A stretch of 64,000 nucleotides of DNA from Opitutia bacterium. Its GTDB lineage: Bacteria; Verrucomicrobiota; Verrucomicrobiia; Opitutales; Seribacteraceae. The stretch spans positions 659 through 64,658 of the forward strand of contig NZKY01000028.1 in the NCBI GenBank assembly GCA_002694035.1, written 5' to 3'. The position numbers and the translations under genes were made by a program. Below, piece after piece: positions 6,337-54,322 of this stretch. The first letter of the stretch is position 1. Each line of letters opens with the position of its first letter. The notes beneath the pieces were generated by a model, which saw only the letters and a list, made by a program, of their open reading frames with translations, did not search any database and was not told the origin of the DNA.

Positions 6337-7350
6337 ATGGCAATCCATATTAAGAATAAATCTAGAGTAGAAATCGGTGTCGTTCCCACCCACCTAATGT
6401 TTGTTGGTGCTCTTGCTCCCAACGAATCAGGGAAATTACCGCGTACAAATTCTGGTGATTTGAAAATCGTGTCCGGCATGCGCCTGCTCTGCCGTACTTC
6501 GCCGGTAAAGTTAAACAATGTTCAGGTGACACTTTTTCCCGGGACGGACAGTAAGGATTTGGATGATATGTTTAAAGGTTTACGGGCATTAAAACTTCAA
6601 GTTCACCTGATCATGATGGTAGGTGGAGCCAACCCTTTGAACCCTAAGGATGAGGATGCGGTTGTGGAAATGCTTAATTCAGGTCTTGCTGTCGCTAAAA
6701 AGTATAAAGTTAAACATGTGTCATCCACTTCATTCGAAGAATGGTTATCCGGGAAAAAACTCAAGGGTAAAGCTTTTGAGAATGCAGTTAAACAGGTGAT
6801 CAATGTCCACGCCCGTTGCTATAAGGAGTCAGGATTGGAAAAAAGCTCGGTTGTTGCTTGGCATCTTGAATTTTTGCGAGGTGTAGAATTCCAAAATTTC
6901 ACAAATGCAGCCAAGGCAGCCAAGGTTGTAATTGGAATAAATAAAAAGATTAAACAGAAATTTTTTAAATTGATGATCGATGCAGCACACTGTGGGGATT
7001 CTGACCTGTCGGTGACTGAAAACGAAAAAGTAATCAAAGAATTGGCAAAAGCAGACGCCTTAGGAATCTTCCATGCTTCCGCCAAAACGACCCGTGGTTG
7101 TCTATCCACCGATGACGGATGGATTGGTGCCTTACTTGCTGCCTATGCTCCCACAGGTAAATTAAAGCATGTCTTCGTAGAACTTTTTCATCATCAAGAC
7201 CCAGCACTTGCACCACTTCGTAAAGCCGTCAAAGGACATGGTGTTGATACCACTGACGGCAGAACTTACAATAAATGTGTAACAGATGGCGTAATTGAAG
7301 TTGCTCACCGACTTAATAATTTAGCAGCCCGTAAACTCATAAAGTTTTAG
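6337..7350 (+). CDS. Xylose-isomerase-like TIM barrel, D-tagatose/D-psicose 3-epimerase-like
   Basis: Ordered candidate metal ligands WHLEFLRGVEF, MIDAAH, IFHASA and VFVELF resemble the E / DxxH / H / E set of ketose 3-epimerases. Confidence 0.6.
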   Translation: MAIHIKNKSRVEIGVVPTHLMFVGALAPNESGKLPRTNSGDLKIVSGMRLLCRTSPVKLNNVQVTLFPGTDSKDLDDMFKGLRALKLQVHLIMMVGGANPLNPKDEDAVVEMLNSGLAVAKKYKVKHVSSTSFEEWLSGKKLKGKAFENAVKQVINVHARCYKESGLEKSSVVAWHLEFLRGVEFQNFTNAAKAAKVVIGINKKIKQKFFKLMIDAAHCGDSDLSVTENEKVIKELAKADALGIFHASAKTTRGCLSTDDGWIGALLAAYAPTGKLKHVFVELFHHQDPALAPLRKAVKGHGVDTTDGRTYNKCVTDGVIEVAHRLNNLAARKLIKF

Positions 7351-45225: not shown

Positions 45226-46659
45226 TTGAATGCTACTAAAACATTTTCTCTGACTTTAATTTTTCTTCCAATTTCCCAACTCTTGGCAAGCACGAAGGAT
45301 TTAGATTTTTTTGACCGGACACTTAGGTTTTTTTCTTTCAATGATTATTCAGTTCAAGTTGTTGTGCTCGGAGTTATTTTTATGGGTATTGGTTGTGGAT
45401 TAATGGGAGGACTTGTGGTGACAAGAAGATTATCTTTATTCAGTGATACGCTTTCGCATGCTGTTCTTCCCGGAATTGTGATTGGCTTTATTTTAGGAGG
45501 TTTTAAGAGTTCTTTTGTAGTAATAATAGGTGCAATGGTTGCAGGTTTTCTTGGCGTGACCTTAATTTCGTCAATTACTAAGTATACAAAAATAAGACTT
45601 GATAGTGCACTTGGCTTAGTTCTTTCCGGATTCTACGCAATGGGTGTTTGCTTTTTAACAAGGATTCAGAAGTTAGAATTTGGAAATCAGTCTGGAATTG
45701 ATCGTTATATTTTTGGTCAGATTGCAGGAATTTCATCTACAGATTTATACACTATTGTAATTTCTGGGGTTTTGATTTTAGCGATCATAATTTTATTCTA
45801 CAAAGAGTTGCTTGTAACTGGATTTGATTCCAATTTTGCACATTCCATTGGGTTGCCCGTAGAATTTATTCAATATATTTTTTGGATGCTATTAGCATTT
45901 ACTGTGATTACCTCACTACAGATTGTGGGGGTTATCCTTGTTTCTGCCTTACTAATAATTCCTGCAGCTACTGCTTCGATTATTACCCAAAATATGAAGA
46001 CCCTTCTTCTATGGTCATCTTTATTCGCAGTTGTCTCAGGAATAATCGGTGCATACCTATCCTTTTTGGGAAACAGCTTACCAACAGGACCCATTATTGT
46101 TTTATGCTCGTGCTGTATTTTCATAATAATTTTATTTTTGCATTGGAAAAATGGTCTACTTTTAAAATGGTACCGCTTGCGCGGAAAAGAAAAAAAAATA
46201 GCTGTAGAAAATACATTAAAAGCAGTTTATCAGGAACTGGAAGTACAGAGATTTTCAAAAGATTTGATCCTCATTTCCGATTTGGCAAAAAGAAGACGGG
46301 TCAGCGTTCCCGAGGTTTGCCAGGAAATTATTCCTTTAATTGAACAAGAATTAGCCTTTGTAAAAGAAAGTAGTAATCCAAAACTTCGGGGAGAAAATAA
46401 AATAGCCTTATCCCCAAAAGGTTGGAGTGAGGCATGTCGAATTATTAGAAACCATAGACTTTGGGAATTGTATCTGACCAACGAGGTACAATATCAAGCA
46501 GATCATGTTCATGATGATGCTGAAAAAATTGAACACATTCTCGGAGATGAGTTGGTAAGGAAACTTGAAAAAATTCTATCCAACCCAACTAAAGATCCAC
46601 ATGGCAAACTTATCCCAAGCCAACAAGATATAAAAAGAGGTTACATGCATATTCAATGA
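45226..46659 (+). CDS. Metal ABC permease fused to a C-terminal DtxR-like domain (YtgC/YtgR-like)
   Basis: LFSDTLSHAVLPG (ABC-3 permease), then RIIRNHRLWELYL...HDDAEKIEHIL...DPHGKLIP. Confidence 0.9.
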   Translation: MNATKTFSLTLIFLPISQLLASTKDLDFFDRTLRFFSFNDYSVQVVVLGVIFMGIGCGLMGGLVVTRRLSLFSDTLSHAVLPGIVIGFILGGFKSSFVVIIGAMVAGFLGVTLISSITKYTKIRLDSALGLVLSGFYAMGVCFLTRIQKLEFGNQSGIDRYIFGQIAGISSTDLYTIVISGVLILAIIILFYKELLVTGFDSNFAHSIGLPVEFIQYIFWMLLAFTVITSLQIVGVILVSALLIIPAATASIITQNMKTLLLWSSLFAVVSGIIGAYLSFLGNSLPTGPIIVLCSCCIFIIILFLHWKNGLLLKWYRLRGKEKKIAVENTLKAVYQELEVQRFSKDLILISDLAKRRRVSVPEVCQEIIPLIEQELAFVKESSNPKLRGENKIALSPKGWSEACRIIRNHRLWELYLTNEVQYQADHVHDDAEKIEHILGDELVRKLEKILSNPTKDPHGKLIPSQQDIKRGYMHIQ

Positions 46660-47612
46660 GTGATTTCTTCCCAATCTTTGATTTTATCGATATTTTTTGG
46701 ACTCCATGGTCCACACCCCAAGATTATATTTGGAATGGAAAAATAGTTTTAATGGGGTTTTTTGTTTCTGCTTCTTGCGGAATGATTGGATCTTTTATCG
46801 TTGTAAGGAGGCTGGCCCTTATGGGAGACGCAATCAGTCATGGTATACTTCCTGGTTTGGTACTAGCATTTATTGTTTCCCAATCGAAAGCTCTTCTTCC
46901 TATGTTCATTGGTGCGTGTGCTGCTGGCATGCTATGCAACTTTTGCATCGAATGGTTAAATAAAAAAACTCCAATCAAATTGGATTCAGCAATGGGGCTC
47001 ACTTTTACCAGTTTTTTTGCTCTCGGAATTATCCTCATTGCACAGTTTGCGAATAATGCTCACATAGATGCAGAGTGTTTACTATACGGTGAAATCGGAT
47101 ATATTCCTTTAGAAAAACATATTTTTATTGGCGACTTTCATCTTGGTCCTCGTCCATTAGTTTTCATGGGGGTGGTTCTGATATCCATAACTGTTTTGAT
47201 TATTTTGTTTTACAAGCAATTAATGGTCACAAGTTTTGACCTGACTTTATCTGTTACTCTAGGGCTCCCTGTAAAAATATTTCATTACGGTCTGATGCTA
47301 TGTTTAGCATTCACTATAGTATCTTCATTTGAATCAGTAGGAGTTATATTGGTTATCGCAATGATCATTTTCCCATCCATCACTGCCTCATTTTTCGTTA
47401 CGAGAATGCCAAATATCTTATTCTCCACAATACCCTTATCAGCATTTTATTCAATTGGAGGATTTTGCTTTGCTAGATGGTTTGATTGTTCTATTGCATC
47501 AGCAATGGTAGTAGTTGCGATGTTGTGTTTTTTTGTTGCTTGGCTGGTCGGTAAAGAAAATGGAATTCTACTTAATTTTACTAAACCTAAAACATTTTCG
47601 AAAATAAAATAG
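46656..47612 (+). CDS. Metal ABC permease (TroD/YtgD-like)
   Basis: LMGDAISHGILPG, HIDAECLLYGEI, FESVGVILVIAM. Confidence 0.9.
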   Translation: MSDFFPIFDFIDIFWTPWSTPQDYIWNGKIVLMGFFVSASCGMIGSFIVVRRLALMGDAISHGILPGLVLAFIVSQSKALLPMFIGACAAGMLCNFCIEWLNKKTPIKLDSAMGLTFTSFFALGIILIAQFANNAHIDAECLLYGEIGYIPLEKHIFIGDFHLGPRPLVFMGVVLISITVLIILFYKQLMVTSFDLTLSVTLGLPVKIFHYGLMLCLAFTIVSSFESVGVILVIAMIIFPSITASFFVTRMPNILFSTIPLSAFYSIGGFCFARWFDCSIASAMVVVAMLCFFVAWLVGKENGILLNFTKPKTFSKIK

Positions 47613-47619
47613 GACCAAA

Positions 47620-47647
47620 AAAAAGCTCCCAAGATCGGGAGCTTTTT
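47620..47647. terminator. Bidirectional rho-independent terminator
   Basis: AAAAAGCTCCC-aagatc-GGGAGCTTTTT, an 11-bp stem with A/T tracts on both sides, between convergent genes. Confidence 0.88.
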
Positions 47648-47669
47648 AAATTAATTCCTAAAAAGGTGA

Positions 47670-47978
47670 TTAACCCTTCTTCTCTTTCTTTCCTTTTCCT
47701 TTTGCTAATGCAATTTTAGAAGCGGTTGAGTTCTTGCAGTTGCATCCGTCGATGGCAACGCGAGCCCCTTTTTTCAACTTTGATGGGCAATCAATGCCAA
47801 CCATTTGAGTCTTACTTCCAATCTGTACCTTTTTTTCTTTCTTTCCCTGTGCAACTGTAAGAGTTTTGGACTCTTCGTCAAAACCAACAACCTTTCCATG
47901 GATAGGTTTGGATGGGCAACCAGCGAAAACGGATCCAGCAAAAGCTATGGAGGCGAGGATAATGAATAATTTTTTCAT
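47670..47978 (-). CDS. Small exported Lys-rich protein with 4 Cys (possible OB fold)
   Basis: MKKLFIILASIAFAGSVFAGC signal/lipobox-like; HGKVVGFDEESKTLTV beta-pattern. Confidence 0.7.
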   Translation of the reverse strand: MKKLFIILASIAFAGSVFAGCPSKPIHGKVVGFDEESKTLTVAQGKKEKKVQIGSKTQMVGIDCPSKLKKGARVAIDGCNCKNSTASKIALAKGKGKKEKKG

Positions 47979-48125
47979 AATGGGTATTGTTGAAGTTAAT
48001 GTTTATTTAAAGAATCACATTGAATATGCTAATTCAAGATAGACAAGTTTGAATTCAATAATAATTGTATTTTATTTCTAGGGGCTCTTACTAGTACATC
48101 ATATCTAAAATCAATAAATTTTTTT

Positions 48126-49301
48126 TTGAAGACATCATATAAATTTTTTATTCCATTATTAATTTTTGTTCATTGCTTAGTTGGCCATCCGATTCCTGAC
48201 ATTCCAATAGTTGGGAAGTTTAATTCAGACGGGAACTGCTCGATTTTGGTAGAAATCGACACACGAAGTTTCGCAGAAGATCCTGAAGCAGTCCCTTTTT
48301 TAACAAAATCTGAATTTGAAAAACTATCCGATTCAAACAAATCCGCTTTGATTTTCCAAGCGAACAACATGATTGAGGATGCACTTCTGCTTCGCTTTGG
48401 AGATACTGAATGGTATTTACCTGCTTTTGATTTAAATTTTACTGAAAAAGAGGCAGCAGATTTTAGCGACGAGAACATTGTTGTGGTGGTTGGTCGGCAC
48501 GACACTTTTCTGGACCCTAACGCTAGCTTTTATCAAATCCGCTCGAAAGCAGAAGCTCCCTACGATCTAATTTTTACTAATCAAATAAACGGAAAACCAC
48601 AACGACGGGTAAATGTACTCTTTCCGGATGAGGAAAGTTTTCAACTAGATCTTTCCTTTATTGACGGAAAACCGATCGCTAAACCTAAAGTCGAGAAACT
48701 GATTTCCAGAAACGAAAAGAGTGCGGAAGAACGAAGAGAAGATGCAAGAAGCACTTTTTACTCATTTACAAGGCAGGGCTTTGTTCATGTGCTCCCCCTT
48801 GGCCTTGATCACATACTATTTGTCCTAGGGTTATTCTTTCTTTCCAGAAAATGGAAACCCATATTATACCAGGTCTCGGTATTTACAGTCGCACACACAA
48901 TAACACTTGGACTTGCTACTTTAGAGTTAATATCAGCACCATCTCACATAGTTGAGCCGATAATAGCTGCAAGTATTGCAGTGGTTGCACTAGAAAATAT
49001 TTTCTTTCCCAACTATCGTCATTCAAGGCTATTCATTGTCTTTTTCTTTGGTTTAATTCACGGACTTGGCTTTGCTGGTGCCCTATCGGCTTTTGACTTG
49101 GATCCTGCCTCGCTGGTAATAGGTCTATTTGGCTTTAACATAGGAGTTGAATTCGGACAGTTAGCTGTAATTACAATCGTCTTTTTTCTAACTTTTTGGA
49201 TTAAAGAAGAAATACAATATCGAAAACTTATAGTCATCCCATGCTCAATCCTTATTGCACTAATGGGAATTTATTGGACGATCGAACGTGTTTTCTTTTA
49301 A
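48126..49301 (+). CDS. HupE/UreJ family (Ni/Co-type) membrane protein with large N-terminal periplasmic domain
   Basis: GFVHVLPLGLDHILF, FTVAHTITL, FGLIHGLGFA, FNIGVEFGQ. Confidence 0.85.
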   Translation: MKTSYKFFIPLLIFVHCLVGHPIPDIPIVGKFNSDGNCSILVEIDTRSFAEDPEAVPFLTKSEFEKLSDSNKSALIFQANNMIEDALLLRFGDTEWYLPAFDLNFTEKEAADFSDENIVVVVGRHDTFLDPNASFYQIRSKAEAPYDLIFTNQINGKPQRRVNVLFPDEESFQLDLSFIDGKPIAKPKVEKLISRNEKSAEERREDARSTFYSFTRQGFVHVLPLGLDHILFVLGLFFLSRKWKPILYQVSVFTVAHTITLGLATLELISAPSHIVEPIIAASIAVVALENIFFPNYRHSRLFIVFFFGLIHGLGFAGALSAFDLDPASLVIGLFGFNIGVEFGQLAVITIVFFLTFWIKEEIQYRKLIVIPCSILIALMGIYWTIERVFF

Positions 49302-49311
49302 ATAATTAATA

Positions 49312-49707
49312 ATGTGTGAATCAGCCCGTAAAAGAGTTTTGTCGAAAATTGCTCTACTGGTAATTTTTTCAACAACCAGTATTCCACTTGCATTGCTGCA
49401 GGTAGGAATATGGGCAAATATGTTTGATGAATTCTATGAAGAAACCCGATCTATTACTCTATCTGCAGAATGGACCTTTGATGGATTACATCGTTGCTCA
49501 GGTTGTGAATTGGTGGATGAGCTTGGCTCAAGCTCAAATGAATCCATCAGTATGCTGAGAACATTTTCATTTGAAACCAAACTCGTACACGAGCCCGGTT
49601 TTCTGGTTGTTATTCCTAAAAACCAGTTAATCGGCAAAAATTATTTCCCTACAAATCAAGTTGTTTCGAGAATCGATAAAGTCGAGACCCCCCCTCCGCG
49701 AGCCTAA
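49312..49707 (+). CDS. DUF2946-like CxxC protein / putative regulatory upstream ORF
   Basis: N-terminal hydrophobic segment, TFDGLHRCSGC (CxxC at 49495-49506) and C-terminal ETPPPRA-stop. Confidence 0.65.
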   Translation: MCESARKRVLSKIALLVIFSTTSIPLALLQVGIWANMFDEFYEETRSITLSAEWTFDGLHRCSGCELVDELGSSSNESISMLRTFSFETKLVHEPGFLVVIPKNQLIGKNYFPTNQVVSRIDKVETPPPRA

Positions 49708-49725
49708 AAAGTCTTCATTTAGCTC

Positions 49726-49787
49726 ACCAAACTAAAGTTTGGTAAATTTTTAACTCGAAGAAAAATTCTTCGAAGAACTTTTTTATT
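49726..49787 (+). promoter_or_regulatory. Tandem hairpins in the 83-nt leader of the Met-rich barrel gene
   Basis: ACCAAACT-aa-AGTTTGGT (49726-49743); TCGAAGAA-aaa-TTCTTCGA (49755-49773), overlapping the palindrome TTCTTCGAAGAA (49766-49777); T-tract from 49779. Confidence 0.5.
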
Positions 49788-49790
49788 ACA

Positions 49791-50789
49791 ATGAAACTTT
49801 TTGCTGCAATTACACTTATTTTTATTTCACCTTTTTATTTTTCATCTGCCCACGAAGGGCCCTGGACTGCTGCACGCCCTGACGGTCATGCCCCAATCTC
49901 AGTTATGGGAGATCATATGCACAAAATGGGCGAATGGATGGTATCATACCGCTACATGACTATGGATATGGAAGGTTTACTCAAAGAATCTAATTCTGTG
50001 ACCGCATCCTCACAATTAACAGGAATGACTTCTATGGTTCCAACTAAGATGACAATGGATATGCATATGTTTGGAACAATGTATGCAATTTCAAACAAAT
50101 GGACATTGATGGGCATGCTTAATTATTTAAATAATGATATGGACATGATCATGCCGATGAATATGAGCATGAGTATGGAAAGCTCTGGCATTGGTGATTT
50201 GAAAGTTGCAGGTCTATATGATCTTGCGCAATGGGATGACGGACGAAGAATGCATTTAAAATTGGGATTAAATCTTCCAACTGGGTCGATCGACGAGAAG
50301 CACACGAATGGCAATACGCTAGGTTATGGAATGCAACTTGGTTCTGGAACTTATGATTTTGAACCTGCAATTACTTACCTAGGTCAGACCGAAAATTATT
50401 CCTATGGTGCACAACTTGGTGGAATTCTTCGTCTGGGTGAGAATGATCAAGACTATACACTTGGAAATAAATTTGAAGCAAAACTGTGGGGTGCCCGTAA
50501 AATTACAGACTCACTCAGTGCTTCTGCTAAATTTGATTACTCAAGCCAAAAGGAAGTTGATGGTGAGGATAAAAGAATGATGAAAATGATGTCTCCCGCT
50601 CTTTCCACTACTTCTCAAGGTCGAGAAATTAGTACTTTTGGTCTTGGTTTGAATTACTATTTTCAAAATGGTGACTTAAGCGGACATCGCCTTGCAGCAG
50701 AGTGGGAAAAACCTATCGACCAAAAAGTTAATGGAGTCCAACTGGAAATCGATTCGGTTTGGACATTGGGTTGGCAATATGCCTGGTAA
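49791..50789 (+). CDS. Met/His-rich outer-membrane beta-barrel (Phenol_MetA_deg/'transporter'-like), putative copper uptake
   Basis: Signal peptide then HEGPWTAARPDGHAPISVMGDHMHKMGEWMVSYRYM; Met clusters; PTGS, QLGSGTYD; C-terminal WTLGWQYAW typical of a beta-signal. Confidence 0.7.
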   Translation: MKLFAAITLIFISPFYFSSAHEGPWTAARPDGHAPISVMGDHMHKMGEWMVSYRYMTMDMEGLLKESNSVTASSQLTGMTSMVPTKMTMDMHMFGTMYAISNKWTLMGMLNYLNNDMDMIMPMNMSMSMESSGIGDLKVAGLYDLAQWDDGRRMHLKLGLNLPTGSIDEKHTNGNTLGYGMQLGSGTYDFEPAITYLGQTENYSYGAQLGGILRLGENDQDYTLGNKFEAKLWGARKITDSLSASAKFDYSSQKEVDGEDKRMMKMMSPALSTTSQGREISTFGLGLNYYFQNGDLSGHRLAAEWEKPIDQKVNGVQLEIDSVWTLGWQYAW

Positions 50790-50881
50790 TCAAGAATTAT
50801 TGAATACTTGATTACTTTGCTTGATAAAATTTAAGATTGTCGATGAGTTTTTAGATATTTTAAGAGATCAAAAAGGTAGTA

Positions 50882-52102
50882 ATGAATGGCGAAACCAAAA
50901 ATCATCGAAATGGTATCGCAATAAATACTCAAAAGTTCGATCTCTTTCGAAATACTTTTAATGGCATTGTGGAGGCTAGCTTTGCCTCCACATGCCTACT
51001 CGTTGCCATTCGATATTTCGAAGCATCTGATACTCTCAAATCACTCTTAGCCGGTGGGGGTTCGATCGGTTTTCTAATAACTCCATTGTTTCTTCTTTTA
51101 ATTGGAAGAAGCAAGCTGCCTGTGAGCATTCTCTGTTCAATCCTTATGTTTTGTGCAGCTTTTGGCATCCTTATATCCGCTTCTGCAACAACATCCTGGT
51201 TTTATGCGGGTTCTGTATTAATAGCCTGTGTTCTAGCAGTCCAAGTACCATCCTTAATGGTTCATATTTACTCAAATAATTATAATTCAAATGAAAGAGG
51301 TAGAAAAATATCTAGTAATCTTATGCTATCCGCTATTGTTGGTTGTTTCACAGCTCTTCTTATTGGTTATCTTCTCGATAAGGATCTTAATCATTTCAGA
51401 GCCATCGCAATAGTCACATTCTTTCTCTGTGTAGCTACGGGATACTTTCATCTCAAAATTCCCTCAAAACCACTTAAATCAACCTCAGAGGGCTTATTTA
51501 AAGACCTGATTCGTGCAATTAAAGACAGGCTTTTCTTTTGGATGCTTACCGGCTGGATGCTTATGGGCATTGGTAATTTAATAACCATTCCCCTACGTGT
51601 CGAATATCTGGCTAACCCGGTTCACGGGCTCAACTTAAGTAACACAATGATACTTATTATTACTATGGTCGTACCCCTTATTTGTCGCGTTTTAAGTACA
51701 CCATTTTGGGGGTGGGCTTTTGATAATTTTAACTTAGCATTTGTGAGAATATACATAAATCTGTTTTTTCTACTTGGTCTCTTTTGCTACTTTCAAACTC
51801 ACAATCTTTTATTATTAATTATTTCATCCGCCATGATAGGAACAGCAACAGGTGGTGGCACAATGGCTTGGGCGCTATGGGTAACAAAAGTCGCACCGAA
51901 GGGAAGAGAATCTACTTACATGAGCATACATTCTTTTTTTACTGGTATCAGAGGTCTTCCTGCTCCATTCATTGGCTACTGGATTCTAACAAACCACGGC
52001 CCAGGCCAAGTTTCTTGGACTTCAGCCATTTTAATCTCTCTCAGTTGTCTTGTATTTTTGAAACTGTCACCGAATAAGAGGTTGAAACAAAAGAGTCATT
52101 GA
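50882..52102 (+). CDS. MFS transporter
   Basis: About 12 hydrophobic segments over 406 aa; YSNNYNSNERGRKIS and KVAPKGRESTYMS loop motifs. Confidence 0.8.
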   Translation: MNGETKNHRNGIAINTQKFDLFRNTFNGIVEASFASTCLLVAIRYFEASDTLKSLLAGGGSIGFLITPLFLLLIGRSKLPVSILCSILMFCAAFGILISASATTSWFYAGSVLIACVLAVQVPSLMVHIYSNNYNSNERGRKISSNLMLSAIVGCFTALLIGYLLDKDLNHFRAIAIVTFFLCVATGYFHLKIPSKPLKSTSEGLFKDLIRAIKDRLFFWMLTGWMLMGIGNLITIPLRVEYLANPVHGLNLSNTMILIITMVVPLICRVLSTPFWGWAFDNFNLAFVRIYINLFFLLGLFCYFQTHNLLLLIISSAMIGTATGGGTMAWALWVTKVAPKGRESTYMSIHSFFTGIRGLPAPFIGYWILTNHGPGQVSWTSAILISLSCLVFLKLSPNKRLKQKSH

Positions 52103-52165: not shown

Positions 52166-54322
52166 ATGAATTTTCGGTTTATTCATGCTTTTACTGCTCT
52201 GACACTTTACTCTTGCGAACTTTGTTGCATCGTATTGGGTGAAACTCAACCAGAAGATATAGATAATTTAAATCCTCTAGTGGTTACTCCTGAAGGTGGA
52301 TTTTCTAAACCTTTAGTGACTTCGGCTTGGACGATTTCTTATTCTGAAACAGATTCAAAGAAGTTAATGTCTCGATCATTAGCGGAATCATTGTCAGGAA
52401 TCCCCTCGGTAATGATTCAGAAAACTGCACTTGGACAGTCTTCTCCATACATTCGCGGATTGACGGGTTATCATAATCTTCTATTGGTGGACGGAATTCG
52501 ATTAAACCATTCCGCCATGCGTTCAGGACCAAATCAATACTGGAGCACGGTTGAACTTTTCAGCTCGGATCGTGTGGAGACACTTAGGGGAACACATGGC
52601 GTATTGTTTGGGGCAGAAACGGTCGGAGGTGTGGTTAATTCACTTTCTAATATTCCTTATTATTCTGAATCAAATACCAATCAGTCCACGCAAATTCTGG
52701 CAAGGCTTTCCTCTGCAGAAAATTCATGGAGTGGCGGAATCTCTTCTAAGATTTCCTCCCCTGATTGGTTTGCTGAAATTTCTCACATAGAGCGCTCATT
52801 TGGAGATCTGGAAGGTGGAAAAATGATAGGGAAACAAAAAAAAACTGGCTACAATTCAAGAGGATCACAAGCTCGGTTGTCCAAAAAACTCTCGGAAGAT
52901 TCTAATTTAATTTTTGGTTTTCAACAAACCTTCATGGATGATGTTCCCAGAACCCATAAAACTATTGATGCCTTAAACTGGGAAGGGCTTTCTGCAGGAA
53001 GTGAAATATGGAGACGGCTCGATCAAAAACGTAATCTCTACTACGGAAGAGTTAACTGGGAAGATATTGACGGAATTGCTAACTCAGGTCAGGTAACTTT
53101 GAGCCTACATACTCACGACCAGGAGAGAAATCGAATGAAAGGGAGTTCAGGAATAGCACAAGGTGGTGATTTTCAATATTTTAACCTTAATGATTTTGGT
53201 CTCACCGCACGATTTGAAAAAAAAGATTTCATAGAGGGAAATCTCTTCTATGGAACTGAATGCCACAATGAAAACTTAGATTCAGGAGGTTACAAGTTTG
53301 ATACAAATACAAATAAAACAAGCGATCTAGTACAAGGTCCGCTTGCTGCGGACGCAAGCTATAATCGTATTGCTACTTATATATACTCTATTCAGGAATT
53401 TGATTCAGGATGGACAATACAACCGGGTATTCGGTATGCAAAAATCAGTGCAAACTTAAAAAGGTTTTACGAAAAGAATAGCGACGCTTCTTCTTTGTTT
53501 GATCCTGAAGAAAAAAGTTATGAGGAAGTTATTGGAAGTTTTCGAGTAACTAAATCAATAAATGATGACACTTTTATTTTTGGTGGATTTTCTCAAGGAT
53601 TTAGACCACCTAGCCTATATGACTTAACTTCGACCGATGAGACAAGTGCTGTCGAAAGGCCGAACACAAAATTGGAATCCGAACAATTTTTGCAATCCGA
53701 AGTGGGCATGAGAGGAGTGTCTGACTCATTGAGTTGGCAGACCTCCTTCTATCACACATGGATAAAAGATATGATTGTTCGATCACCTATCGAAAGAGGT
53801 AAATCTGAGGTTTTAAAATCAAACGGAGACGGTTTTATTCAAGGGTTAGAACTCGAACTTGCTTACAGGTGGTCACCATCATGGAAATCCGATTTTTCAT
53901 TTTCTTGGATGAAAGGAAAAGTTGAGCAATTACTTGATAATAATTCAACCGGCTCAATTCCAATTGACGGGCGAAATTATTCAATAATCGAACGAGCAAC
54001 CACCCGGTTGATGCCAACTCAGGTAAATCTTAGAACTCAATTCGAACCAGTAGGTTCAAATTGGTCCTCCGTATTTTCACTACTTGCAGTTGGCAAGGCG
54101 GATCGTCTTTCCCTGAAAGATGAAAGTGATATTACTAGAATTCCAGGTAATGGAACGCCAAATTACTTCCTGGCAAATATTTACACTAATTACAACATTT
54201 CCGATTTTAGTACCATATCTCTGGCTATTGAAAATATTGGCGATGTTGATTATCGGGTTCATGGATCCGGAATTAACGGAGCTGGAAGAAATTTTGTTTT
54301 TTCCTGCTCTTTACATTTTTAG
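52166..54322 (+). CDS. TonB-dependent receptor
   Basis: Plug motif SPYIRGLTGYHNLLLVDGIRLN, ETLRGTHGVLFG; C-terminal ENIGDVDYRVHGSG...CSLHF. Confidence 0.9.
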   Translation: MNFRFIHAFTALTLYSCELCCIVLGETQPEDIDNLNPLVVTPEGGFSKPLVTSAWTISYSETDSKKLMSRSLAESLSGIPSVMIQKTALGQSSPYIRGLTGYHNLLLVDGIRLNHSAMRSGPNQYWSTVELFSSDRVETLRGTHGVLFGAETVGGVVNSLSNIPYYSESNTNQSTQILARLSSAENSWSGGISSKISSPDWFAEISHIERSFGDLEGGKMIGKQKKTGYNSRGSQARLSKKLSEDSNLIFGFQQTFMDDVPRTHKTIDALNWEGLSAGSEIWRRLDQKRNLYYGRVNWEDIDGIANSGQVTLSLHTHDQERNRMKGSSGIAQGGDFQYFNLNDFGLTARFEKKDFIEGNLFYGTECHNENLDSGGYKFDTNTNKTSDLVQGPLAADASYNRIATYIYSIQEFDSGWTIQPGIRYAKISANLKRFYEKNSDASSLFDPEEKSYEEVIGSFRVTKSINDDTFIFGGFSQGFRPPSLYDLTSTDETSAVERPNTKLESEQFLQSEVGMRGVSDSLSWQTSFYHTWIKDMIVRSPIERGKSEVLKSNGDGFIQGLELELAYRWSPSWKSDFSFSWMKGKVEQLLDNNSTGSIPIDGRNYSIIERATTRLMPTQVNLRTQFEPVGSNWSSVFSLLAVGKADRLSLKDESDITRIPGNGTPNYFLANIYTNYNISDFSTISLAIENIGDVDYRVHGSGINGAGRNFVFSCSLHF

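Follow-up and report, generated by a model that had tools for sequence, protein, structure and literature searches.

A phylum-wide family of small proteins as candidate nascent-chain metal sensors upstream of a Met/His-rich outer-membrane barrel gene in Verrucomicrobiota

What does a small open reading frame (ORF) that ends in Pro-Pro-Pro-Arg-Ala-stop do directly upstream of an outer-membrane barrel gene? The question is raised by a 64,000-nt window (the whole stretch of DNA analysed here, positions 659 to 64,658 of the forward strand of contig NZKY01000028.1, assembly GCA_002694035.1) from an Opitutia bacterium, in which an ORF of 131 codons, hereafter the small ORF, is followed after 83 nt by the gene of a Met/His-rich barrel. 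A preliminary description, made from the sequence of the window, had proposed a CruR-like metal sensor that uses PPP-type stalling to control a non-TonB copper porin. Our reading, to which we give a probability of roughly 60%, is that the small ORF would sense metal during its own translation, coupled to the translocon, and that its pause at PPP would be read through the intervening leader and so control the barrel gene, probably together with those that follow, by analogy with two proteobacterial systems, CruR and CutF. The reality of the gene, its motifs, the fixed spacing between them, its gene partnership, and the conservation and structure of the leader are documented features of the locus. 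The small ORF is divided as follows:

49312-49707 (+), ORF of the 131-aa leader protein (Verrucomicrobiota family without a Pfam entry), which may sense metal as a nascent chain and arrest translation
49336-49413 (+), hydrophobic N-terminal predicted export or anchor segment (about residues 9-34), with a basic RKR before it (hydropathy, AlphaFold2 helices)
49474-49506 (+), metal-site-type motif T-F-D-G-L-H-R-C-S-G-C (family consensus TFDGxHPCxxC; conservation)
49507-49689 (+), linker of fixed length and poorly conserved sequence (spacing counts, substitution rates, AlphaFold2 coil)
49690-49707 (+), C-terminal arrest-type motif PPP-R-A, then TAA (conservation, likeness to the GPPPRL end of CutF)

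The protein starts with MCESARKRVLSKIALLVIFSTTSIPLALLQVGIW..., contains DGLHRCSGC (Cys62 at 49495-49497, Cys65 at 49504-49506), and ends in ...VETPPPRA-TAA, with the PPP codons at 49690-49698 and the stop codon at 49705-49707. The preliminary description had the ORF, its hydrophobic segment, HRCSGC, the TPPPRA-stop end, and all coordinates right, and it cautioned correctly that the motif is not RAPP (the end being ETPPPRA-stop). The hydrophobic segment (Kyte-Doolittle 19-residue maximum of 2.06, at residues 13-31) leads into a conserved LQxG(I/V)WAxM, and Q30, W34, and M37 are invariant or nearly so in both close-family and distant-member alignments. A word-indexed search recovered 107 homologues with identities as low as 40%, either nameless or labelled 'hypothetical' and with Opitutales as the one taxon name given, while the loci from related genomes came throughout from Opitutales, Opitutia, Puniceicoccaceae, or unclassified Verrucomicrobiota assemblies. 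When 18 diverse members were aligned, G32, W34, M37, F38, F41, Y42, R61, C62, G64, C65, and P127-P129 were invariant. G58, R61, and G64 are likewise invariant among close family members, as are P127-P129 in the close-family alignment; C62 and C65 are invariant across 74 distant members, and P128-P129 are invariant among distant members.

Ratios of nonsynonymous to synonymous divergence (dN/dS; Nei-Gojobori, 91 pairs) were 0.07 for residues 20-80, 0.31 for the linker (residues 80-124), and 0.11 for the tail, i.e., a constraint about four times weaker on the linker than on the core. Together with the conservation of homologues, these ratios indicate that the small ORF is a translated and selected reading frame, a real gene under purifying selection. 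An AlphaFold2 model built from the 18-sequence alignment (mean predicted local distance difference test score, pLDDT, of 53.5) placed helices at residues 3-21 and 27-47 followed by coil, with a linker pLDDT below 50; for this shallow input alignment, the model is consistent with a non-globular chain past residue ~47. Of the genome's 2537 crude ORFs with 100 aa or more, just 9 have PPP within their last 10 residues, and family tails read PPP[RKQ] plus 1-7 residues, then stop. In some relatives (L008, at 6380-6396, and L044; proteins P0092 and P0096), a sense codon for Gln or Lys replaces the stop after PPPRA, and the tail reads on for five extra residues, QREFI or KREFV, up to the next in-frame stop; the clade of the window keeps the read-on nucleotides (..TTCATTTA..) outside the coding region. 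PPP and the stop are therefore a variable 2-7 residues apart.

The distance between the Cys motif and PPP is far more regular than the linker sequence would suggest. In the window's protein, 61 residues lie between Cys65 and Pro127 (an offset of 62); between the second Cys and the initial Pro of PPP, 198 family members show a median offset of 62 with a standard deviation of 2.2, and 107 remote members a standard deviation of 3.0, and the final PPP was found 58-67 residues past the Cys in 30 genomes across the phylum. This spacing is held although the linker is the least conserved part of the protein. About 62 residues of extended chain would correspond approximately to the span of the ribosomal tunnel plus the translocon.

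A constant spacing between a CXXC motif and a C-terminal proline motif is the hallmark of CruR (Bp2923) of Bordetella pertussis, the DUF2946 prototype, in which CXXC and an RAPP motif three residues from the end are 45 residues apart (PMC9426467). That distance is kept within 1-2 residues in the CruR family, and the insertion of five residues impairs copper control (PMC9426467). Copper relieves the arrest of CruR, whereupon Rho terminates transcription in a long intergenic region ahead of a TonB-dependent transporter gene (PMC9426467). The small ORF shares with CruR an N-terminal export segment (predicted here), CXXC, and a proline motif of arrest type at the C-terminus, within a few residues of the stop; CruR family members precede TonB-dependent transporters, and here the gene string includes a receptor of this type, which is the immediate next gene in at least 4 of 30 related loci. 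The constancy of the spacing is an analogous property with a different value (62 vs. 45), and the two systems differ further in their arrest motif (PPPR here, RAPP in CruR), in the lack of a match between the small ORF and PF11162, the Pfam family of CruR, and in the intergenic region, which is 162 nt for CruR but 83 nt and A/U-rich here, not a plausible Rho site.

Profile searches place the small ORF outside DUF2946. With a cut-off of 23.7 bits for PF11162, the small ORF protein gave no hit to this family at E <= 1, none of 74 family members (0/74) matched at E <= 0.1, and PF11162 was absent from a whole-genome profile search of this genome; aligned by hhalign to six Verrucomicrobial DUF2946 proteins, the family profile produced a local 15-column match at the CxxC only, with a probability of 12%. 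Verrucomicrobiota have few genuine DUF2946 proteins (matches in 8 of 301 genomes, of which 5 exceed the cut-off), and the six that were recovered have an H..C.LC motif and RAPP, RGPP, or GPP ends with a short tail, clearly distinct from the small-ORF family. The earlier proposal of a CruR-like sensor thus stands for architecture and genomic behaviour, whereas membership in DUF2946 is not supported; the resemblance is one of architecture. The small ORF gave nothing meaningful against Pfam and NCBIfam either, a Pfam scan of the 74 family members yielded no meaningful match to any family, and PDB sequence searches with the small-ORF family and with the barrel were without matches.

The family itself is broadly distributed. 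Searching 1.84 billion representative proteins with a hidden Markov model of the family recovered 134 clusters, and distant members at 17-40% identity align over their full length. In this wider family, LQxxAWxxM closes the hydrophobic segment, and then come TFDGxHPCxxC, a variable linker, and PxxPPPR with 1-3 further residues before the stop. The hits of a second profile search were all Pfam-less hypothetical proteins, most of them labelled Verrucomicrobiota; a Prosthecobacter is among the bacteria with a family member. The family was present in 70 of 301 sampled Verrucomicrobiota genomes and 46 of 149 genera, in 1-3 copies each.

For the end of the protein, the parallel is CutF of Rhodobacter capsulatus (cutFOG operon), which carries a Sec signal peptide and a CxxxC motif (PMC9973294; bioRxiv 10.1101/2025.02.05.636593), and whose C-terminus reads P109-EPEG-PPP-RL-118 (bioRxiv 10.1101/2025.02.05.636593). 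Binding of periplasmic copper by CutF stalls the ribosome on PPP against elongation factor P (EF-P) (bioRxiv 10.1101/2025.02.05.636593), and the stall opens a stem-loop over cutO's Shine-Dalgarno (SD) sequence (PMC9973294; bioRxiv 10.1101/2025.02.05.636593). PPP-type stalling is thus not the new variant that had been supposed, since CutF already stalls with copper at GPPPRL-stop (bioRxiv 10.1101/2025.02.05.636593). The small ORF resembles CutF in its size (<150 aa), its Cys-based motif, its predicted export, the structured intergenic RNA before a same-strand gene, and its TPPPRA-stop end (PPPRL.. in some relatives). Published rules define as 'CutF-like' a protein of <150 aa that has a signal peptide, PP among its 15 final residues, and a same-strand neighbour at <1000 nt (PMC9973294); the small ORF agrees with them in its length (131 aa), in its PPP at -5 to -3, and in the barrel gene 83 nt downstream, and its hydrophobic N-terminus is a candidate export segment; Verrucomicrobia are unmentioned in the text and four supplementary files of that study (PMC9973294). 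The differences are that CutF has CxxxC and the small ORF a CxxC in a conserved TFDGxHPC context; that Cys and PPP are ~41 residues apart in CutF and 62 here; that CutF acts through an SD stem-loop, whereas here the organism appears to be SD-less and the stem-loops are off the start codon; that the downstream gene encodes a multicopper oxidase in one case and an outer-membrane channel of uptake type in the other; and that the small ORF is probably not the first gene of its operon and has no detectable sequence relation to DUF2946. SecM, VemP, and MifM offer a looser comparison, as secreted leader peptides whose C-terminal arrest is thought to respond to translocon events and to control the next gene in cis; these, however, monitor the secretion machinery and open an SD stem-loop, while the presumed input here is periplasmic metal and there is no SD sequence.

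The leader between the small ORF and the barrel gene comprises the following elements:

49708-49790 (+), structured conserved leader, 83 nt (folding z, divergence)
49714-49718 (+), UUCAU, candidate anti-start element complementary to AUGAA at the barrel start (weak covariation evidence)
49726-49743 (+), hairpin 1, 7 bp, ACCAAACT-AAAG..., with a U-rich stretch after it; present in every clade
49755-49773 (+), hairpin 2, TCGAAGAA-AAA-TTCTTCGA, with the invariant core TCGAAGA-N5-TCTTCGA
49779-49784 (+), U6 (T6) tract, 5 nt past hairpin 2 and 6 nt before the barrel AUG

The 83-nt spacer, two hairpins, T-tract, and following Met/His-rich barrel gene that the preliminary description had listed are all present, with hairpin 1 beginning 18 nt past the stop (it had given about 19) and hairpin 2 ending 17 nt before the AUG. 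Folding of the window's leader gave z = -2.8 to -3.6, and 40 distinct leaders compared with dinucleotide shuffles had a mean z of -2.62, 29 of them below -2. The remaining intergenic regions of the gene string ranged from -0.1 to -1.7, and only a terminator at 47620-47647 folds more strongly (z = -4.5). In the window's clade, the leader has a p-distance of 0.147 vs. a synonymous divergence of 0.34-0.45 in the adjacent ORF, i.e., it diverges 2.5-3x more slowly than the synonymous sites of its neighbour. The leader is plainly functional; it evolves under purifying selection and folds consistently. The position of hairpin 1 is constant while its stem varies by clade (CCAAAC/GUUUGG, AGCC/GGCU, CCAACCA/UGGUUGG, and GUUUGGCU/AGCCAAAC), changes that in the aligned sequences amount to covariation. 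The 7-bp core of hairpin 2 is identical in 24 distinct leaders from three clades, and its motif has a single occurrence in the 2.88-Mb genome. An Rfam scan of 47500-51500 found no family in the leader, and weak sub-threshold terminator-like hits at 47550-47680.

Two long-range pairings may also form. UUCAU (49714-49718) and AUGAA are paired in 88% of cells across the 24 leaders, with two A-to-G changes that retain a G-U pair and a disruption of the pairing in clade C; a stop-proximal UAAAAAG and the U-tract before the AUG are paired in 78% of cells, with four G-C compensations. The two pairings cross each other, and the alignments lend them modest support as candidates only. If they are real, one hypothesis is that barrel translation would need ribosomes that reach the stop codon, and a stall at PPP would lower it. 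Two other pairings were rejected. The switch proposed earlier, through the perfect 12-nt palindrome TTCTTCGAAGAA as a conserved alternative pairing, needs G49775, which is an A in a 99%-identical relative (L022); the palindrome is missing from all other clade members, and thus specific to the window, and could form only a 4-bp stem. A 'hairpin 0' (GAGCcUAAA/UUUAGCUC), which appears in the minimum-free-energy structure of the window and spans the Arg-Ala-stop codons, is not conserved in other clade members.

The genes around the small ORF that bear on its role are these:

49791-50789 (+), Met/His-rich outer-membrane beta-barrel with a COG4313 / Phenol_MetA_deg-like predicted fold; presumed control target
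48126-49301 (+), HupE_UreJ_2-family inner-membrane metal permease gene (Pfam PF13795, E = 3.6e-44)
50882-52102 (+), major facilitator superfamily (MFS) transporter gene of the same gene string (Pfam MFS_1, E = 5e-20)
52166-54322 (+), TonB-dependent receptor gene of the same gene string (Plug and TonB_dep_Rec_b-barrel domains; syntenic across loci)

We compared neighbourhoods across a marine-clade sample of 21 genome loci and 40 metagenome loci. The Met/His barrel gene lies downstream on the same strand, after a gap of 69-161 nt, in every marine-clade locus with enough contig, and it is the next same-strand gene in 13 of 30 loci from diverse genomes. In the same 30 loci, this neighbour is a TonB-dependent receptor gene at least 4 times and the gene of a Met-rich MQGGMxMPM protein 5 times. 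The partner varies and the directly upstream position is constant, which favours a cis-acting element over a dedicated subunit. CruR- and CutF-like genes likewise sit before genes for exported or outer-membrane proteins of metal type (PMC9426467; PMC9973294). The Met-rich partners (L076, L092, L097, L099, and L100) are exported proteins of ~265-290 aa that start ...(V/I)PMQGGMxMPM and form an alternative downstream partner family of the sensor-like ORF; those scanned (L076 and L097) matched no Pfam family, L097 giving a near-threshold PEP-CTERM hit below the cut-off (E = 5.9e-4). The wider order is also conserved, with a ZnuA/ABC-3 transporter, a small lipoprotein on the opposite strand, HupE_UreJ_2, the small ORF, the barrel, MFS (syntenic in most loci and missing from some), the TonB-dependent receptor, DUF1549/1553, and DUF1501, and partly reflects shared ancestry. 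With its ZnuA/ABC-3 transporter, HupE-like permease, and TonB-dependent receptor, this neighbourhood looks like one for metal uptake and does not fix the metal.

Taken together with CutF and CruR, which serve as the models for stalling, metal binding, topology, and coupling to downstream expression, these features would fit the following scheme. The hydrophobic N-terminal segment would bring the nascent chain to the Sec translocon, and when the ribosome is at the PPP codons (49690-49698), the His-x-Cys-x-x-Cys site, 62 residues behind the peptidyl-transferase centre, would lie at the periplasmic mouth. Occupancy by metal (probably Cu(I), possibly another thiophilic metal) would alter the pulling force on the chain or its folding, and this in turn would set the length of the PPP pause despite EF-P. 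The EF-P gene is present in the genome, and PPP would therefore not be an absolute block in itself. How long ribosomes dwell, or how many arrive at the stop codon, would then be read via the structured 83-nt leader, either through termination or attenuation at a hairpin and U-tract or through translational coupling by the stop-proximal pairing and the SD-less start pairing, and would set expression of the barrel, probably also of the MFS and TonB-dependent receptor genes. For the sign of regulation, 'metal replete = downstream off' is favoured because the neighbours resemble uptake genes.

Several observations weigh against this scheme. Homology to DUF2946 was detected neither by profile search nor by hhalign, and the argument for a sensor is therefore one of analogy. 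The small ORF is probably not the first gene of its operon: the end of the HupE_UreJ_2 gene lies 10 nt before it, and the two are likely to share a transcript. Across 29 more distant loci, the 80 nt past the stop are mildly structured (mean z = -1.06), and in the window the leader hairpins are weak as terminators next to the clear one at 47620-47647. A close relative, the single-cell genome AG-891-C06 (L009), ends its ORF in HPPRA vs. PPPRA, the sole departure from PPP among close relatives, which could be a real variant or a sequencing error. No SD sequence was found before the barrel gene or its neighbours, and the CutF readout therefore cannot apply literally. The mRNA protected by a PPP-paused ribosome would reach only to about the stop codon, and in a model that imitates the ribosome by masking the leading bases, the region from -18 to +12 around the start had a mean unpaired probability of 0.59 for free RNA, 0.61 with a ribosome on PPP, and 0.69 with one on the stop; unmasking of the barrel start by a PPP-stalled ribosome as in CutF was rejected for lack of an effect in this modelling (0.59 to 0.61). 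The starts of 11 genes between 43482 and 56589 are without a recognisable SD sequence and have A/U-rich upstream regions, a pattern that suggests SD-independent initiation in this organism.

The main alternative is a stable protein, anchored in the membrane, that binds metal on the periplasmic side and acts in trans as an accessory, for instance as metallochaperone or thiol partner of outer-membrane or periplasmic metal proteins, its PPPR end being a structural or interaction motif and the hairpins tuning operon stoichiometry or mRNA stability. Such a protein would agree with the strong constraint on the transmembrane segment and core (dN/dS 0.07), with a linker that is not neutral (0.31), with the LQxxAWxxM conserved within the hydrophobic segment, something that a disposable signal peptide would not usually show, and with the tight packing of the gene behind hupE, or even overlapping a HAD gene in L011; the lack of stall-dependent opening of the start region in the modelling also speaks for it. 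It sits poorly, however, with the lack of a predicted folded domain past the two N-terminal helices, with a linker that keeps its length and not its sequence, with PPP[RKQ] always 1-7 residues from the stop, as in CutF, and with an invariable upstream position before changing partners (barrel, TonB-dependent receptor, or Met-rich protein), which a cis element fits better. We judge a trans-acting accessory unlikely, though it deserves to be kept in view.

A sub-variant of the sensor reading concerns the readout, which could be transcriptional as in CruR: transcription would end within the leader, through hairpin 1 with its U-stretch, hairpin 2 with the U6 tract, or Rho, except when a ribosome is retained where the ORF ends. 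The precedent is the termination of CruR in its long intergenic region, and every clade A-D leader has a hairpin with a U-rich run within 1-4 nt; both hairpins pass a loose terminator scan. Their stems, however, are short, rich in A-T, and hold 3 G-C pairs each, a gap of 3-5 nt separates stem and U-tract, and terminator-like sites in the region are not above shuffles (4 vs. 2.7 +/- 1.9). The hairpins also begin 18 nt past the stop, farther than a ribosome at PPP or at the stop codon would cover, and the leader, rich in A/U and low in C, offers Rho a poor loading site. A transcriptional readout thus seems improbable on present evidence.

That hairpin 2 (TCGAAGA-N5-TCTTCGA) is instead a DNA operator for a dimeric regulator of a barrel promoter in the spacer, with the small ORF irrelevant, is very unlikely: its inverted-repeat core is invariant in 24 leaders while hairpin 1 covaries, which suggests sequence-specific recognition, and its 7-5-7 spacing is typical of helix-turn-helix dimers, but the motif occurs once in the genome, a promoter scan of the spacer's + strand gave no sigma-70-like site (the sigma-70 consensus may not be the host's), and distant clades (the L011 and L016 groups) are without the repeat yet have structured leaders.

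Returning to the co-translational sensor, a more far-reaching version of it can be put forward tentatively, as possible and still rather doubtful in its full form. Verrucomicrobiota would own a transmembrane nascent-chain metal-sensor family that is independent of DUF2946 or diverged past recognition; a 62-residue 'ruler' would put the His/Cys site at the periplasmic translocon exit when the ribosome is at PPP; coupling would be SD-less, unlike the SD unmasking of CutF and the Rho termination of CruR; and the commonest target would be an unrecognised, TonB-independent, Met/His-rich outer-membrane copper channel of COG4313 fold. Sensing of periplasmic metal by a nascent exported chain was discovered in 2022-2025 and is known from two proteobacterial examples of one Pfam family. 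A second, sequence-unrelated family would, if true, make the principle general and indicate that it evolved more than once. Occurring in about one quarter of the sampled Verrucomicrobiota genomes with a different spacer length, the family would also provide a natural comparison of spacer length with tunnel-plus-translocon geometry, a handle on such control without SD sequences, and a link between a large uncharacterised family of Met/His-rich outer-membrane barrels from abundant marine bacteria and trace-metal acquisition. PPP stalling being known from CutF, what is new here is an unannotated phylum-wide family with its own spacer length, no SD sequence to unmask, and a new class of target.

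For this target, the evidence is at the level of fold. The barrel protein has no direct Pfam hit at E <= 1, while PF13557 is precomputed on some of its close homologues, and its family is large (3492 hits at E <= 1e-5). Its AlphaFold2 model (pLDDT 67, predicted template modelling score of 0.68) has 4RL8 as its top Foldseek match (E = 7.5e-12, template modelling score of 0.72), and FapF also matched. The non-TonB outer-membrane barrel of the preliminary description is thus supported as a predicted fold, that of a non-TonB outer-membrane channel like the COG4313 / PF13557 channel Pput2725 (PDB 4RL8), with which the window's barrel shares ~11% sequence identity. It differs from the COG4313 hydrophobic-substrate channels in its His/Met-rich N-terminal segment and Met-rich loops, which are not known in them, and no metal role for COG4313 is reported in the literature found. 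We infer copper as the ligand from this segment and these loops, from the Met-rich partners elsewhere, and from the His/Cys site of the sensor, Met/His richness being the one sign of copper in the barrel itself; a 'porin' function is likewise presumed. Barrel homologues of other Verrucomicrobiota, in seven loci (L071, L072, L079, L080, L082, L088, and L089), carry an extra (S/P)CC(P/A/S) motif just ahead of a conserved RPDxHAPISVMGDHTH, and this motif is missing from the window's barrel.

Upstream, the HupE_UreJ_2 gene precedes the small ORF in most marine-clade loci. It was rejected as an obligate partner, being missing from L011-L013, where the transporter and HupE genes give way to a HAD-like gene, overlapped by the small ORF in L011, and the ORF, barrel, and TonB-dependent receptor are retained. 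The Pfam HupE_UreJ_2 domain covers residues 214-361 only, and the unannotated N-terminal ~210 residues (48126-48760) are probably a periplasmic extension. Further upstream, at 47670-47978 (-), a 102-aa Cys-containing, Lys-rich lipoprotein adjoins the locus in nearly all relatives and resembles NCBIfam ExtJ (a selenite/tellurite reduction operon protein) weakly and below the cut-off (E = 5e-6). The terminator at 47620-47647, AAAAAAAAGCUCCC-AAGAUC-GGGAGCUUUUU, is a textbook bidirectional intrinsic terminator placed between this gene and a convergent ABC-3 permease gene, and serves as a yardstick for this genome. The permease (45226-46659, +) is of TroC/ZnuB type and carries a C-terminal metal-binding and dimerisation domain of the DtxR family (Fe_dep_repr_C, residues 397-464, E = 1.3e-23), a transporter-regulator fusion that is kept in related loci.

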